DNA from: a virus
Taxonomy: Duplodnaviria; Caudoviricetes
Reading direction: 5' to 3' (one strand)
DNA length: 48,045 bases
Virus record (IMG/VR): IMGVR_UViG_3300020045_001019
Span: 1 to 48,045 of that record
A program made the translations under genes and the position numbers. Shown here in pieces: positions 21,341 through 34,867 of this stretch (position 1 is the first letter of the stretch; each line of letters starts with the position of its first letter). The notes beneath the pieces were generated by a model. The model saw nothing but the letters and a program-made list of their open reading frames with translations. It made no database searches and was not told the origin of the DNA.

Positions 21341-21973
21341 ATGGCAGAACAGGAAACTAAGGCAGAGATGCCTTGGGAGAAGAGCTGGATCATGAAGAAG
21401 GTCCAGCCTCTTGTTGATGCTGTAGCAGATGCTAAGAATGGGACAATGCCTTGGGAACGGCAATGGAAAGAGAGGGCTACACAGCCTTCTTTGAAGACCC
21501 TTGATCCAGTCAAGAGTGCACCTGTTATGAGTAAAGAAGACTACTTCTCTACACTAGCTAAAGTGGAGAGTGGAGGTAATGCTAAAGCATCTGCCAGTAC
21601 AAGCTCTGCCGTCGGGTTATATCAATTCACCGAGGGAACTTGGAGTGATATGACCAAGAAGATGGGTGTTAGCTATTCGCTTGCAGATCGTACAGACCCT
21701 AAAAAATCAAGGCATGTAGTTGAAGCGTTCACAGCTAAGAATGAAGCAAAGGCTACTCGTGATTTAGGGAGGGCTCCTGAAAATCATGAGCTTTATATGT
21801 ACCATTTACTTGGTAGTGCAAAGGATATTCTTACAGCTCCTCTTACAGAACCTGCTGCTGATTATGTACAGGCGCAACAGGCAAGGGCAAATAAGAATGT
21901 ATTTTTTACAGAAGATGGAAAACCACGATCTGTAAAGGAAGTCTTAACAATGTTTAAGAGGAAGTTTCAGTAA
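21341..21973 (+). CDS. Lytic transglycosylase/lysozyme-like virion protein
   Basis: Catalytic LAKVESGGN, AVGLYQFTEGTW and LYMYHLLG motifs; ATG at 21341. Confidence 0.82.
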   Translation: MAEQETKAEMPWEKSWIMKKVQPLVDAVADAKNGTMPWERQWKERATQPSLKTLDPVKSAPVMSKEDYFSTLAKVESGGNAKASASTSSAVGLYQFTEGTWSDMTKKMGVSYSLADRTDPKKSRHVVEAFTAKNEAKATRDLGRAPENHELYMYHLLGSAKDILTAPLTEPAADYVQAQQARANKNVFFTEDGKPRSVKEVLTMFKRKFQ

Positions 21974-22245
21974 TGCCAGCAAAAGGGAAATATTCAAAAT
22001 CAGCTACAGAGGACTCTATTCGTCAACGTAAGTATAACTCTAAGCCTTCTAGTAAGAAGGATAGAGCTTCTCGTAACTCTGCTCGTAGTGAAGCTATGAA
22101 GGATGGTAAGGTACGAAAGGGTGATGGCCTCGACATCGACCACAAAGACTCAAACCCACGTAATAACAAGAAGAGTAACACCCAAGTGATGTCTGCCAGT
22201 AAGAACAGAGCACTTAACCAGTTTGATAAAAGGAAAAAGAAATAA
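21973..22245 (+). CDS. Small basic HNH protein
   Basis: DIDHKDSNPRNN...N...NR HNH core in a K/R-rich protein. Confidence 0.75.
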   Translation: MPAKGKYSKSATEDSIRQRKYNSKPSSKKDRASRNSARSEAMKDGKVRKGDGLDIDHKDSNPRNNKKSNTQVMSASKNRALNQFDKRKKK

Positions 22246-23582
22246 TGGCAATTGAACCTAAAGGCCCAGGTGGTGTAGGTAGTTCATATGGAACTCGTAC
22301 AACTATCCCAGCTCCCCAGATTGACTCAGCAAATGAGCTACGTCCTAATTACACAGAATTTTCTCAAGGAGAAGGCTTTCCTGTAGTTGCACAAACTAAT
22401 CCTCTCACCGGGGTGGTTGAAATTTTAGACCCGGAAACAGGGTTGCCTATTTCCTTGGGAGGCGGGGATGTCGCTACCGAGTCTGGGTGGGTGAACTTTG
22501 TTACGGGGACTGCATCACCGCGCGACATGCTGACAGCTGCTGGGGACACGACAGCCACATCTATGATGTCAAAAGAAGCGCATATCTCTCGCGCCGCTGT
22601 TACGTCACTCAAGATTGTGGTGCCAAACTACTACTTTAACGGAGCGTCTGGGGACTCTGCGCCGGGAGATGCAACCGCAACTTGCACCGCATCGATTGAA
22701 TACCCCGCTGGCACTTACACGCAGGTAAGGTTCGGCGGTGATATTACTGGCCCTCTGCCGAACGGCGGGCTGCTTACGTCAGATGATGTTGCGGTAACAA
22801 TCCCAAATGCAACAACCTTCTGGGTGCGGATTTATAGGGCAGGATTCACCGCTGGTAAAGTCCCGTTTATAAATGGTGGAAATAGCACGATGGGTGACAT
22901 AGCCAACTACGGCACATCGGTAACTGACATGACGATGGGGGGCGTGATTGGCAGTAGCGGAAGCCCAAAATTCCGCTGTGCAGCAATCATCTCAAAAGTA
23001 GCAGGCGTGAAAAGCTACCTACTGCTGGGGGACTCACGGGTGATGGGTACGGGCGAAACTTACAGCCCTACAAACATGGATTTCGGCATACTGGCCCGAG
23101 GAATTGGACCCTACGCGGCCTACTGCAACATCGGAACCGGGAGCGACCGATCAGACTGGTTTGTGTCAAATAGTGTTATGCGCCGTCAGTTGGCTCAATA
23201 CTGCACGCACGCTGTGGGCGCTTATGGGGTTAACGACCTTGGGGCAGGGCGTACCCCAGCGGCTATCGTCGCATCTATCCAAGCCATGCGCGGACTGTTC
23301 CCATCACTTCCTTTTTACCAAAGTACCATTCATGCAGCTACCAACGCAGGAAATACAGCGGCGCTGTCATACGAAGCAAACCGGGTGGCGCTTAACGACT
23401 TGATCCGCTCAGGCATCAGCGGGCTGTATGGGTGGGTGGAAGGGGCTGACCCCGTTGAATCAGCGAGAGACTCCGGGCTGTTTGCATCATCGACGTATAC
23501 AACGGACGGCCTGCATATGTCTCAAGCGGGATACCTTGCGCTGGCAAAAAGCGGGAAAATATTGCCGCAACTGATGCCGTAA
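22245..23582 (+). CDS. SGNH/GDSL esterase-domain protein (probably virion-associated)
   Basis: Blocks LLGDSR, NIGTGS, YGVNDL and DGLH; sequence becomes visibly GC-richer after 22400. Confidence 0.85.
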   Translation: MAIEPKGPGGVGSSYGTRTTIPAPQIDSANELRPNYTEFSQGEGFPVVAQTNPLTGVVEILDPETGLPISLGGGDVATESGWVNFVTGTASPRDMLTAAGDTTATSMMSKEAHISRAAVTSLKIVVPNYYFNGASGDSAPGDATATCTASIEYPAGTYTQVRFGGDITGPLPNGGLLTSDDVAVTIPNATTFWVRIYRAGFTAGKVPFINGGNSTMGDIANYGTSVTDMTMGGVIGSSGSPKFRCAAIISKVAGVKSYLLLGDSRVMGTGETYSPTNMDFGILARGIGPYAAYCNIGTGSDRSDWFVSNSVMRRQLAQYCTHAVGAYGVNDLGAGRTPAAIVASIQAMRGLFPSLPFYQSTIHAATNAGNTAALSYEANRVALNDLIRSGISGLYGWVEGADPVESARDSGLFASSTYTTDGLHMSQAGYLALAKSGKILPQLMP

Positions 23583-23878
23583 CCTAATCCCCTCACCGGG
23601 GGGAGTGATTTATCAACCGACGTGGCGACACTGAAATTACCTGCTGGTGTGACAGATTTGACATCAGGGGTAAGCGGTGGCGCTGTGACGCACAAAGCGC
23701 GCATGTCACTTCCGGCAAACATGGCAACCGCTGGCTATGGTCAGCTTGGGTTTGATACCACTGGTGCATTGCTCGCAACCCCTGTTTTAGGCGTATTGGA
23801 GGCAGTCGGTGACGTGCTCTATTACACGACAAGCACGGGTCGAAAGACTGTGACACTAGTCTAAATCTAATCCCCTCA
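22396..23878 (+). repeat. Three direct repeats CTAATCC(C/T)CTCA(CCGGGG) bounding two cassettes
   Basis: 22396-22413 and 23584-23601 are 17/18 identical; 23867-23878 matches the first 12 nt of copy 2. Confidence 0.85.
23583..23864 (+). CDS. Orphan C-terminal cassette, in frame with the SGNH gene after its stop
   Basis: Reads PNPLTGGSDLSTDVATLKLPAG...VLYYTTSTGRKTVTLV*; an alternative GTG start exists at 23622; GC-rich. Confidence 0.6.
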   Translation, partial: PNPLTGGSDLSTDVATLKLPAGVTDLTSGVSGGAVTHKARMSLPANMATAGYGQLGFDTTGALLATPVLGVLEAVGDVLYYTTSTGRKTVTLV

Positions 23879-23936
23879 TCACAATGATTCAAAAACAACC
23901 TATCTGTTTAAGGTGGGTTAACTCTTAAGGAATTAA

Positions 23937-24608
23937 ATGGCAAGTTCTAAACTAGCTCGTCAACGTCAAGTTGTTGAACCTATTCGTGGCTTTATAAGTG
24001 TAGAGCCTAAGAATTTAGCTCAGCAGCTCTATCTTGAAGCTATTCAAGAGAATGATGTTGTGTTTGGTGTTGGTAGTGCAGGCACAGGGAAAACCTATGT
24101 TGCAGCTTCATACGCAGCGGAGAAGCTTTTCTACAGGGAGATAGGGCAAGTGATTGTCACTAGACCTAATGTTGAGGCGTCACGTTCTATGGGGTTTCTC
24201 CCTGGTGAGCTTGAAGAGAAATATGCTCCTTATCTGGAGCCTTTTGATGGAGTGTTTGAGAGAGCTTTTGGTAAGTCTATGTATGAGCTGCTCAAGAAGC
24301 GAGGACAAATTGCTCCTAAGCCTTTAGGCTTTATGCGAGGAGCTACATTTGATAATGCTATTGTCCTTGTAGATGAATGTCAGAATATGACTGAACGAGA
24401 GTTTAAACTTATTCTTACACGAGTTGGAGAAGGAACTAAAATCATCTTCTCTGGGGATAGTAAACAGGTAGACATTCCAGACTCTGGACTGAATAGTACG
24501 ATTGATCGGTTGAAGAGGATTCCTGGAATCTTTACAGTGGAGTTTACTCCTCATGACATTGTTCGTAGTAGGTTGTGTAAAGAAATTATTATGGAGTATG
24601 AGCGTTAA
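23937..24608 (+). CDS. phoH: PhoH-family ATPase
   Basis: GSAGTGKT, GFLPG, FMRGATF, VDECQN, GDSKQVD and DIVRS motifs. Confidence 0.95.
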   Translation: MASSKLARQRQVVEPIRGFISVEPKNLAQQLYLEAIQENDVVFGVGSAGTGKTYVAASYAAEKLFYREIGQVIVTRPNVEASRSMGFLPGELEEKYAPYLEPFDGVFERAFGKSMYELLKKRGQIAPKPLGFMRGATFDNAIVLVDECQNMTEREFKLILTRVGEGTKIIFSGDSKQVDIPDSGLNSTIDRLKRIPGIFTVEFTPHDIVRSRLCKEIIMEYER

Positions 24609-24609
24609 T

Positions 24610-24750
24610 ATGGCAACAAGCAAAGCAATGAAAGAAGGCATGAAAGAGAAAAAGACTGGTAAGTCTGGTTCTAAGATGCACGAGAAAAAAGAAACTAAAT
24701 CATATAAAAAGGCTGAAAAGAAAGGCATGGGTAAGAAAGGTGCCTGTTAA
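24610..24750 (+). CDS. Small lysine-rich protein (46 aa)
   Basis: ATG at 24610: MATSKAMKEGMKEKKTGK...KKGAC. Confidence 0.7.
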   Translation: MATSKAMKEGMKEKKTGKSGSKMHEKKETKSYKKAEKKGMGKKGAC

Positions 24751-24862
24751 TAAGTCTAAAATGGATGCTATGAAAAAGCAATATGGCGCTAAGAAGGCTA
24801 AAGAAGTCTATTACGCTATGGAGAATAAAGCTAAATCTTCTAGTAAGAAAAAGAAGAAGTAG
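24740..24862 (+). CDS. Small lysine-rich protein (40 aa, not in track)
   Basis: GTG start overlapping the previous stop: MPVNKSKMDAMKKQYGAKKAKEVYYAMENKAKSSSKKKKK. Confidence 0.7.
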   Translation: MPVNKSKMDAMKKQYGAKKAKEVYYAMENKAKSSSKKKKK

Positions 24863-32224: not shown

Positions 32225-34867
32225 TTAATGTGTTTCGTACCAGTTCTTACCAATTTCAGACTCCCCTGCATGAGGGCAAGTGATATTAAAATGCTCTCCT
32301 GCAGCTTTAATAGCCCACCTACAAACCTCCCCTACTTCTTCAGCTATTTCTTCACGACACTCTATCTGAATCTCATCGTGAACCCACCCTACAATGCCGA
32401 AATCAACACCCCAAGTAAATCGCTTACTTAACTCTGTGAATGTTAAACAATAAGCTTTCGACATGTGCAGGGCTTCATCTGATTGTAACAGATAAACGAG
32501 CAACTGATGCTCTGATGTAACCCTAATCGGTCTTCCATCTAAACCTGTTATGTACCCATCATAATACTCCATCTTATTAAACTTAGGATTGAATCTCTGC
32601 CTAGCTGTTTCTCTCCATTCTTTCGTTATTCGTTCAACAAGAGCACCAAGGCCGTCCAGCCCACGATACAGCTTACTTCGCAAATCAGCACCACTACCAA
32701 CAGGTTTCTTAGCAGTCTTTGCCAGTTTGACATCACCTCCTCCAAATAAGAGACAATTACCTGTGATTGTAATTGTATTACCTTGCCGGATAACGAAAGA
32801 CTCATTATCTGTAGACAGGCACCAAACTTTCTGTACAGGGTGTACCTCCTTTACCATCTTCATCATTGTCACGTGTGGTTTCTTGCTTATCTTAGAAGCA
32901 TGCATTGTTTTACCATTCTCCATAACACGTGAACTTGTATAGATATATCCAGAGGATTCAATAAAAGAAGCAGTGAGAGCAGCTTCAAACAACGGGCCAT
33001 CTAATTGAGCAAATTGCCAATTACCTTGTTCAATCCAATACCCATCTGCAATCAAGAAACCAGCTAAGAATCCTTTCCTCTCAGCAGAGCTTGCTTGACA
33101 CACTCTTTTCGTCCAGTTAGTAGCATATTTACTAGTATTCCATTCAAAAGCAGTAATACCATAGTCTTGTGACATGGGTGCATTTGTGATGATATTAGAC
33201 TCTTTATTTAATTCATCAGTTGTCCTGATTTGGTAGTCCATATATCTACCGTTAACTTTACCGTAAGAACTAGATGTAGGCATGAACCTCCTTTGTTTTA
33301 CAAACCATCTATGATCCCTTGTTGAGCGAATAGAGAAACCATGTCCGTGTTTCATTTCTATTACTTCATCATACTTCTCATGTAAAGCAAGGATTGGTTT
33401 CCATTCCTTCATCTGAGATTTCTGATTATATGTTAGAACCTGCTCACCTATAACTAAATCTGAATAGTGTTTCCACCCATCCCTTGTAAGGGCTTGTGTG
33501 TCCATTGGTACACAGTAAATGACATTCTTAGCCACATCCCTACTTTCAAGCTCACCAATATCTCTTGTAAGAGAGTGGTTATCTGTACCATCTTCTTTTC
33601 GTCCTTCAATAAGAGCCTTGGTGTATACAGGGCTCCCCATTCGTGCAGCTAACTGGCGAAGTTGATTCCCTGCTGAATCGGTTCCAACAAGTACAAAGCC
33701 TGGCTTACTGGTAAAGATGCTTCGCATTTGCTTTCCATAGAAGCTTCCTGCTTTTGGTATGTTGACGATGTTTCTATGAGTTGCTCTACCCGTGACTGCG
33801 AGAGTATTAACAACACTTGCAATTCTCCCATCTTCTCGAATAAGTCCAAATAAACCCTCAATAATTCCACGCCGTTGCCTACATTGGACTCGTCGTGCAA
33901 CAATGTGCCCAAGTTTGTCCTCAATTCCCTCAAAAGGGTCATCTTTCGATAATTTAGGACTTGTTCTGTTCCCTTTATCATCTGTGTTCCACTCAAGGGG
34001 CTCCCATCCAAGGGAGAGGAGGTAGTCTTTAGTTTCATATGAGGAGTTTAAATCCGTAGGTCGAAAGTTAATACGGCTAAAGCAACCCAAAACGGGCTTG
34101 TCGCTGCTGCCAAGGCCAACCCTAGAGCACCAATCAATAACGCTTTGGGAATAATTCCCACTTTTAAGGAAGGGTTTTCGGATGTAATTATATTCACCAT
34201 CTTTCTTAGTTTCTTCTATTTCTAGAATCTTAGGGAGTCTAGGGACAACAGCTCTGTCAATCAAACCAATCCACCTAGTGAGTTGTTTAACACAACTTTC
34301 CATGTGTTGTCTGTCAACAAGCCATCCGTATTCTTCTTGCTTCTGGAGATGTTCAAAGAGTTCAAACGTAAGAAGGAAAGCATTACGCCACTTACCACCT
34401 TTTGATTCTTTGAGAAGCTCTTCGTACACAAGTTCTAGAATCTCAGTATCTTCTGAACACCTATGCATCATATCTTCTGAGAAGTTCTCCCAGTCGTTAT
34501 GTTCTGGCTTACCTCGTCCTACACGATAACCCCAAGCTGCAATAGAATGAGGACCAATTCCTCTCTCTGGACAATCATATGGGACAAGACGCTTAGGATT
34601 TAACAACCTACTCATCAACAGAGTATCAACTTTCTTACCTTTGAATTCCCAATTATATAATTTCTTTAGGAGAGGAAAGTCATACCCAATTCCATTATGA
34701 GCAATAAGAACATCATAGGATTCTAGTTCTTCAAGAAGTTCTTTAATCTGATAAGGACGAAACTTCTTAATTACGCCAGATTTATATTCCTTTACAGCTC
34801 CACAATGTACTTTAGTAGCTTGTCGTAATAGTCCGTTTGCCTCAAGATCAAAGAGTCCAATTTTCAT
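32225..34867 (-). CDS. polA: Family A DNA polymerase with intein
   Basis: Exo I FDLEANGL, Exo II AHNGIGYD, motif A GTDSAGNQLR, motif B AKNVIY|CLLFG (split by the intein), motif C VHDEIQ. Confidence 0.95.
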   Translation of the reverse strand: MKIGLFDLEANGLLRQATKVHCGAVKEYKSGVIKKFRPYQIKELLEELESYDVLIAHNGIGYDFPLLKKLYNWEFKGKKVDTLLMSRLLNPKRLVPYDCPERGIGPHSIAAWGYRVGRGKPEHNDWENFSEDMMHRCSEDTEILELVYEELLKESKGGKWRNAFLLTFELFEHLQKQEEYGWLVDRQHMESCVKQLTRWIGLIDRAVVPRLPKILEIEETKKDGEYNYIRKPFLKSGNYSQSVIDWCSRVGLGSSDKPVLGCFSRINFRPTDLNSSYETKDYLLSLGWEPLEWNTDDKGNRTSPKLSKDDPFEGIEDKLGHIVARRVQCRQRRGIIEGLFGLIREDGRIASVVNTLAVTGRATHRNIVNIPKAGSFYGKQMRSIFTSKPGFVLVGTDSAGNQLRQLAARMGSPVYTKALIEGRKEDGTDNHSLTRDIGELESRDVAKNVIYCVPMDTQALTRDGWKHYSDLVIGEQVLTYNQKSQMKEWKPILALHEKYDEVIEMKHGHGFSIRSTRDHRWFVKQRRFMPTSSSYGKVNGRYMDYQIRTTDELNKESNIITNAPMSQDYGITAFEWNTSKYATNWTKRVCQASSAERKGFLAGFLIADGYWIEQGNWQFAQLDGPLFEAALTASFIESSGYIYTSSRVMENGKTMHASKISKKPHVTMMKMVKEVHPVQKVWCLSTDNESFVIRQGNTITITGNCLLFGGGDVKLAKTAKKPVGSGADLRSKLYRGLDGLGALVERITKEWRETARQRFNPKFNKMEYYDGYITGLDGRPIRVTSEHQLLVYLLQSDEALHMSKAYCLTFTELSKRFTWGVDFGIVGWVHDEIQIECREEIAEEVGEVCRWAIKAAGEHFNITCPHAGESEIGKNWYETH
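32756..33514 (-). mobile_element. Intein (253 aa, residues 452-704) in polymerase motif B
   Basis: Starts CVPMDTQALT; block B STRDHRWFV; LAGLIDADG-like FLAGFLIADG; block F VWCLST; ends ITGN followed by Cys+1. Confidence 0.92.

Follow-up and report, generated by a model that had tools for sequence, protein, structure and literature searches.

It has long been asked how phages exchange non-homologous C-terminal domains of their host-contact proteins at exact, in-frame junctions, and the usual answer is unspecified recombination. The question arises in concrete form in a 48-kb virus record that is 97% complete (48,045 nucleotides, analysed as a whole and referred to here as the window), where a short repeat, read in frame as NPLTG, lies at the passage from an AT-rich gene start to a GC-rich extension, and where related repeats return downstream. 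The original prediction was that these repeats allow the C-terminal domains of a virion protein to be exchanged. Here, we compare the window with other viral contigs and conclude that the system is real, widespread and site-precise, and that its pool of cargos is common to several phage families. The repeats are probably the ends of exchangeable cassettes that are joined in frame to a short anchor across dozens of unrelated phages, likely via an arm-less, lambda-integrase-like tyrosine recombinase borrowed from a co-resident phage.

Anchor, sites and cassettes in the window

The genes of the window include those for terminase, portal, capsid, PolA, primase-helicase, a B12-dependent ribonucleotide reductase and PhoH. 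Its capsid protein is 65-69% identical to capsids of Salinivibrio phage CW02, Klebsiella phages and Vibrio phages, and two records syntenic with the window are classed as Zobellviridae; no close relative of the window region was found among named phage records. The region of interest lies between an HNH-like gene of 90 amino acids at the end of the virion gene block (21973..22245, + strand), which was used to find relatives, and phoH (23937..24608, + strand; Pfam PhoH, E 2.6e-61). A scan of positions 21900-23900 gave no promoter-like match on the + strand upstream of or inside this region. Elsewhere in the genome, two small lysine-rich ORFs lie 3' of phoH (24553-24862, + strand), with similar ORFs adjoining the HNH gene in L247-L249, and the 880-aa PolA (32225-34867, - strand) carries a weak intein-splicing match (E 0.004) between two polymerase matches.

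The repeats start at 22396, 23584 and 23867, where they had been placed originally, with spacings of 1188 and 283 nt, and they bound the sole GC-rich island of the genome. The step in GC content first noted at the repeats is borne out: cassettes 1 and 2 have 54.7% and 53.4% GC, against 40.7% and 41.3% in the flanks, 44.4% in the anchor and 40.2% in the whole genome, and the highest value of any 600-nt segment elsewhere is 48.3%. GC3 is 0.17 in the anchor, 0.56 in cassette 1 and 0.50 in cassette 2. A 12-mer search of the window with two mismatches allowed found eight matches, against 8.3 expected by chance. Site profiles built from other phages score 34.5, 34.2 and 25.4 bits on sites 1, 2 and 3, while the maximum scores in 30 shuffled windows are 15.3 for the left profile and 17.7 for the right.

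The anchor is a constant N-terminal segment that spans codons 1-54 (22245..22406, + strand), is AT-rich and ends in NPL. We predict that it attaches the protein to the virion; its residues 1-44 are of low confidence in the structure model, and the ESM Atlas returned no match to it at 0.8 or above. A search of viral contigs with the anchor gave one match, which was spurious. Near its start the anchor reads GPGGV (22263-22277, + strand), a resemblance to the [GS]PGG junction of the variant sites described below that is possibly a coincidence.

Site 1 (22396..22420, + strand) is of the left type and consists of an arm (22396-22404), the spacer TCACCGG (22405-22411) and an inverted arm (22412-22420). 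It encodes NPLTG at codons 52-56 of a 445-aa ORF (22245-23582), exactly as first read. Cassette 1 (22405..23592, + strand; stop codon 23580-23582) comprises 1188 nt, or 396 codons, and fuses a beta-sandwich and SGNH esterase cargo in frame to the anchor. The cargo matches phrog_8480 (E 4.5e-41) and Pfam GDSL_2 (E 9e-7, at a score of 30 bits that lies below the cut-off of 32.9). Its SGNH catalytic set is intact: G262-D263-S264 and H424 are invariant, D421 is conserved at 90% or more, and both the serine of the GDS motif and the DxxH dyad lie within an SGNH fold. The model of cassette 1 (pLDDT 84) resembles the carbohydrate acetylesterases 7toh and 9kr1; cassette 1 also resembles phage proteins annotated as minor tail or SGNH.

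Site 2 (23584..23608, + strand; spacer 23593-23599) begins one base past this stop in the same frame, and the frame is open to 23864, in agreement with the original reading. It is of a junction type, made up of a cassette-end arm, the left spacer TCACCGG and a cassette-start arm, which is the form predicted for the joint of a cassette circle; a stop just upstream of the left site was found in none of 69 other left sites. Cassette 2 (23593..23875, + strand) measures 283 nt and continues in the anchor's frame for 89 codons after NPL. Its first ~30 residues match the leaders of other cassettes (P0003; L016, 68% over 28 aa), its last 65 are 88% identical to the C-terminus of P0002, a 641-aa protein without NPLTG, and the two halves join at a common GVS..GG stretch. 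Judged from these sequence matches, cassette 2 would have arisen by internal deletion, and it is likely a silent remnant. The cassette array that had been proposed is present in the window, with its two units, but arrays are not the rule, as none of the 69 left sites is of the junction type; because arrays are this rare, a resident that has since decayed is a likelier account of cassette 2 than an alternative kept in store.

The third repeat was originally taken for a shortened copy of the other two. Sites 1 and 2 carry the same spacer, whereas site 3 (23867..23891, + strand) belongs to a second, right type, with an arm (23867-23875), its own spacer TCATCAC (23876-23882) and a degenerate inverted arm (23883-23891). 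It scores 25.4 and 23.8 on two profiles. The same spacer recurs in L090, L094, L287, L305 and L306, in the first two of these upstream of recombinases, and the bases 3' of site 3 are alike in the relative L248.

Paired sites and exchange among phages

Each site spans 25 bp: the 9-bp arm CTAATCCCC comes first, and a 7-bp spacer separates it from an inverted arm that is imperfect. The sites of phage lambda have a 7-bp spacer between inverted arms, and we take the order of arm, 7-bp spacer and inverted arm seen here to be the layout of lambda-type core sites. Left sites carry the spacer TCACCGG, read as NPLTG, and right sites carry TC[AT][GT]CAC just after a stop codon; the two spacers have only their first two to three bases in common. 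The outer arms are weak: right sites adjacent to recombinases match the inverted arm at 3.1 of 9 positions on average, against 2.3 in the background.

An exact 18-mer scan of viral contigs gave eight distinct matches in seven contigs, all eight in frame near the start of an ORF, and the second site type lies just past the stop in three of the seven. The sites were defined from scans with the right site (51 loci; 49 loci) and with a looser left site (71 loci). In the 51-locus scan, 19 right sites end an open frame of at least 390 codons, among them those of L019, L046 and L056; the remaining matches were rejected as short-frame or chance-like. These three loci form one family with L052, which has neither left site nor GC step and was kept out of the site profiles; five weak left-site loci and the duplicate L054 were dropped from the unit set.

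The two site types occur as pairs. Among 69 distinct left-site loci, 49 have a complete frame of at least 150 codons, and a right site lies within 110 nt past the stop in 34 of these, against a background of 0.8% and with about seven of the loci having also trained the profile; the other 15 complete ORFs have no right site within 110 nt at threshold. When loci are picked by their right site, a left site lies upstream in 31 of 44 distinct cases. Nearly all loci hold exactly one cassette between one left and one right site. The reading frame breaks soon after a left site bearing a G-run in L047, L072, L311, L312, L317, L337 and the second unit of L006, which could reflect either assembly error or an on/off switch by slippage. 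L006 and L044 also share a tandem duplication of anchor-plus-cassette units with an unrelated ORF of 170-190 aa between them.

Anchors and cargos combine freely. The 69 non-redundant intact units and the window (70 units) fall into 51 anchor clusters and 62 cargo clusters; in nine of the ten anchor clusters with several members all members have different cargos, and in four of the five such cargo clusters all have different anchors. That one N-terminus would carry differing C-termini from NPLTG onwards was part of the original prediction, and several relatives of the window agree with it. The N-terminus of P0159 is identical to that of the window at 53 of 58 residues and unrelated after NPLTG; L248, found via the HNH-like gene, has an anchor 61% identical to the window's, a left site, an unrelated cargo of 476 codons and a right site; and P0164, P0165 and P0170 carry the window anchor with other C-termini, although some of these three proteins may be fragments. 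Homologues without the motif (P0166, P0168) indicate that the anchor family exists also without the site. Conversely, P0125 has the window cargo at 72% identity from NPVTG on, behind an unrelated anchor from another phage group.

The ends of exchanged segments fall at the sites themselves. L018 and L031 share 93-94% identity through the final base of the left spacer, and the identity resumes 11 nt before the right spacer; L006 and L044 have the same pattern. The common cargo of L036 and L048 runs to the final base of the right spacer. L167 and L169 are identical over a stretch of 1,524 bases that stops at this same point of the right spacer, beyond which lie recombinase genes of 68% identity and then different phage genes. 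Comparison of the sequences thus establishes the sites, their pairing and exchange with breakpoints inside them.

Cargos are 275-1089 aa long, with one cargo per slot. Among 41 cargo-bearing or cassette-2-related proteins, Pfam identifies 17 SGNH domains, five polysaccharide deacetylases, one CotH and one rhamnosidase, with 17 giving no match, and a capsid cement domain is one of the anchors. The cassette products are predicted to be virion-displayed enzymes that act on host surface polysaccharides. Neighbouring genes have a virion or packaging family as best match in 34 of 48 proteins (45 of 57 ORFs listed at 30 hand-picked loci, and three others), and the sites adjoin six major-capsid families and six portal families; they are also present in a Zobellviridae-like phage without the recombinase. 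Among ten loci downstream of an HNH-like gene (L243-L252), sites occur only in L248, while L250 is incomplete; in L242 the slot after the HNH-like gene holds no gene. The slot is therefore optional. A search of GTDB for a cassette library in host chromosomes, with one junction pattern and one genome per species, gave eight matches, all of them chance-like and without cassette context, which is weak evidence that such a library is absent.

Departures from the single-cassette form are few. Two segments were found only in the window, L110, L027 and L051, within up to 8 kb per locus. In L110 (5451-6124; also L092, 1-206) the second segment lies between two right-type sites and contains a pair of small ORFs, each with a start of its own; another phage matches the end of this segment at 99.5% identity as far as the site. 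L349 is the sole empty site seen, with the anchor followed directly by the right spacer, and is the reciprocal of window site 2. It is one short contig, which differs from L090 at four positions in 293 nt; in its arm it agrees with the right arm of L090 and not the left, its downstream genes are unlike those of L090, and the junction may have formed by microhomology deletion or misassembly. With the errors in this contig and its differing downstream genes, L349 is weak evidence for an empty site.

A linked tyrosine recombinase

L054 encodes a tyrosine recombinase of 307 aa whose gene begins just past the right site. The protein has PF00589 and PF22022 and matches lambda Int (PDB 1z1b, E 3e-41) over residues 75-348 only; as the match begins at residue 75, the recombinase lacks the arm-binding domain. 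Its match to XerD is weak (NCBIfam, E 7.7e-5). There are 588 homologues at E of 0.001 or below, a count that includes other integrase relatives, and the 120 homologues listed are 274-323 aa long. R156, K178, H252, R255, H275 and Y284 are invariant in 33 aligned members, which form a complete lambda-type catalytic set.

The link between enzyme and site was measured with a profile whose training set was 19 right sites, all from loci without the recombinase. Of the 28 non-redundant homologues with at least 54% identity, 25 have a right site no more than 130 nt upstream, against 0.12% of 7,733 random windows; none of 69 full-length integrases has one in the 400 nt upstream. Below 54% identity the right site type is present in two of 13 homologues, and many deeper members are without a site. 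In a tree of 80 rows, with 12 long integrases kept, the short recombinases form one group (support 100/100). A variant site with the spacer TCGCGCG is confined to one recombinase clade, in seven of seven cases (support 100/98).

The variant-site loci (L117, L118, L123, L179, L187, L189, L193) have an extra C in the arm, and at their left junctions [GS]PGG takes the place of NPLTG. In L027 and L051 the variant site lies inside, with a right site of the standard form outside it, while in L075, L182, L184 and L194 the cassette gene is on the opposite strand, converges on the 3' end of the recombinase and ends in the variant site. The recombinase that follows the right site of L086 is truncated, possibly a stage on the way to its loss.

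The window itself had been read as lacking a recombinase, and this stands: a Pfam family search for PF00589 and tblastn with the candidate recombinase both came back empty for the window record, at its 97% completeness. Two complete records that bear cassettes are likewise free of PF00589, and a recombinase gene lies within 4 kb in only five of the 69 left-site loci, so that action in trans must be assumed for most. Such an enzyme in trans was suggested from the outset, and the family linked to the right site provides a candidate. We infer that the linked recombinase performs the exchange and that it does so in trans for phages without its gene.

Route of exchange, alternatives and known systems

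In the route that we propose, a rare left-by-right crossover would free a cassette as a circle and leave an empty site behind. The joint of the circle would carry the left spacer, and the circle would for this reason insert readily at the left site of another phage, ahead of the resident cassette. The displaced cassette would fall silent and then be excised or decay. The window would be an intermediate, in which the new SGNH esterase of cassette 1 is expressed and the old cassette 2 has been reduced to a remnant. Neither a recombination event nor a free cassette circle was observed in the sequences compared, and the signs of circles, site 2 and the empty site of L349, are indirect.

The same recombinase and sites could also act by another route, in which two phage genomes inside the same cell cross over twice, left site with left site and right with right, and no circle forms; this would be a natural form of recombinase-mediated cassette exchange. 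We regard this as a serious possibility, while leaning somewhat against it. The differing spacers would then prevent loss of the cassette, and tandem and empty forms would be accidents; it differs from the best explanation only in route. A double crossover fits the single cassette between left and right site at nearly all loci, which it explains equally well as the circle route, and it fits left and right spacers that are hardly ever confused, the end of identity at spacer edges in exchanged pairs, and the identical cassette beside different recombinases in the unrelated prophage contexts of L167 and L169. Site 2, the empty site of L349 and the right-right tandem of L110, however, each need a left-by-right crossover, the reaction that also makes circles.

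It is improbable, in our view, that no enzyme acts now, with the sites as relics, short-homology recombination at the 12-18 nt motif and NPLTG turn, and the recombinase as a hitch-hiker. Most cassette-bearing phages are without the recombinase, the junction of L349 falls within a common 7-nt stretch, and a beta-turn is plausible for [ND]PxTG, given hairpin 48-61 of the model, so that protein selection could conserve the left motif. Against this reading, synonymous positions in the left spacer TCACCGG are fixed, at profile frequencies of 0.91-0.95 that the search pattern in part determined. The right site is non-coding and nevertheless conserved, with an invariant spacer pattern; the site is tied to one recombinase group and absent from the 69 full-length integrases; site variant and recombinase clade covary; and the catalytic residues of the recombinase are intact. 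Recombination without an enzyme is made less likely by the conservation of a non-coding right site that tracks the recombinase.

Attachment sites often adjoin integrase genes, and the right site could on this ground be the attP of an integrase for the whole phage or a small element, with the cargo adjacent by coincidence. G001-G003 (91-100% complete), where the recombinase is the sole PF00589 protein, would suit this reading, which we nonetheless find very hard to sustain: a further PF00589 protein, separate from the recombinase, is encoded in two recombinase-bearing records, the locus is internal in provirus G005, the loci lie among varied virion genes, there is no conserved site 3' of the recombinase, and the left site is left unexplained.

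A shufflon like Rin or Min, which inverts stored C-terminal alleles within one genome, is equally remote, despite the similar anatomy of Rin in the excerpted text of PMC6109161 (constant N-terminus, a site in the gene and another after the stop, an arm-less recombinase on the far side), and among the loci examined it is refuted: in 428 kb, the 42 recombinase loci of a non-redundant set hold 21 right and 22 left sites, all on the recombinase strand (0-2 in shuffles), none of the 43 is inverted, nor is any in the window, and no stored allele set occurs within up to 8 kb.

With neither inverted sites nor stored libraries, the system that we describe is neither a shufflon nor an integron; it behaves as a shufflon with a single slot, or an integron of domains, would, and belongs to neither family. 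According to PMC6109161, the Rin shufflon of Bifidobacterium prophages inverts several stored alleles of 95-100 aa in one genome, with sites in both orientations. Shared with it, in the same excerpts, are a virion protein with constant N-terminus and variable C-terminus, a site in the gene and one directly 3', and an adjacent arm-less tyrosine recombinase (absent from the window itself), and the rix repeat TTCCCTAACCC resembles an arm variant found here, CTAACCCCC (PMC6109161). Unlike Rin, the present system has direct sites, two spacer types, one cargo, cargos common to unrelated phages, and mostly carriers without a recombinase. Its recombinase is lambda-Int-like (E 3e-41), which may set it apart from Rin, and no Bifidobacterium phage is among the matches listed of 179 tblastn records.

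Integrons, as outlined in extracts of PMC8618304, combine a tyrosine recombinase with a site after each stop, place the newest cassette first and include CALINs that are served in trans. The likeness lies in the post-stop site, likely circular intermediates, newest-first order and arrays without a recombinase (PMC8618304, same extracts). Here, in contrast, there is no IntI, the PDB matches of the recombinase being lambda Int only; cassettes lack a start codon and are fused in frame to an upstream anchor ORF rather than expressed from a cassette promoter; and there is usually one cassette, in a phage virion region. The 25-bp arm-spacer-arm sites are presumably also unlike attC sites with their folded bottom strand. 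Of the integron-like or orphan-module system first envisaged, the exchangeable cassettes survive.

The pdif modules of Acinetobacter, according to PMC9771954, use host XerC/D to move whole genes on plasmids between inversely oriented sites. They resemble the present system in carrying cargo between two short tyrosine-recombinase sites, in moving between replicons and in an enzyme that can act in trans (PMC9771954), and differ from it in that the enzyme here is phage-borne, lambda-like, non-Xer and linked to the sites, the sites are direct, and domains are fused. Phage receptor-binding proteins are described, in two surveys of domain shuffling (PMC10684548 and bioRxiv 10.64898/2026.05.12.724579), as constant N-terminal anchors with non-homologous C-terminal enzyme domains, SGNH hydrolases included; the words 'site-specific' and 'recombinase' have no occurrences in either text. 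Fixed nucleotide junctions and a linked recombinase set the present proteins apart from that description. Lambda integrase (PDB 1z1b) shares the core-binding and catalytic domains (lambda residues 75-348) and the intact catalytic set, whereas the recombinase is ~300 aa long, without arm-binding domain, encoded among virion genes and placed in a group separate from full-length integrases (100/100). According to PMC8138268, Rci is likewise without an arm domain, and lambda Int is distinct from other tyrosine recombinases. A search of the open-access literature found no description of this cassette system.

On balance, we favour the view that these elements form a community-wide domain-exchange network, in which the recombinases of some phages load cassettes onto the anchors of any co-infecting phage with the two sites, recombinase-less members of other families included, so that the library is the community and the window a frozen replacement intermediate. 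For the exchange of non-homologous domains, the system offers a concrete enzyme family and two defined 25-bp sites. With a compact recombinase, two naturally distinct spacers and a left site readable as protein, it could serve as a tool for in-frame domain exchange. If our reading is true, unrelated phages draw on one pool of surface-acting enzymes via the recombinase of others.
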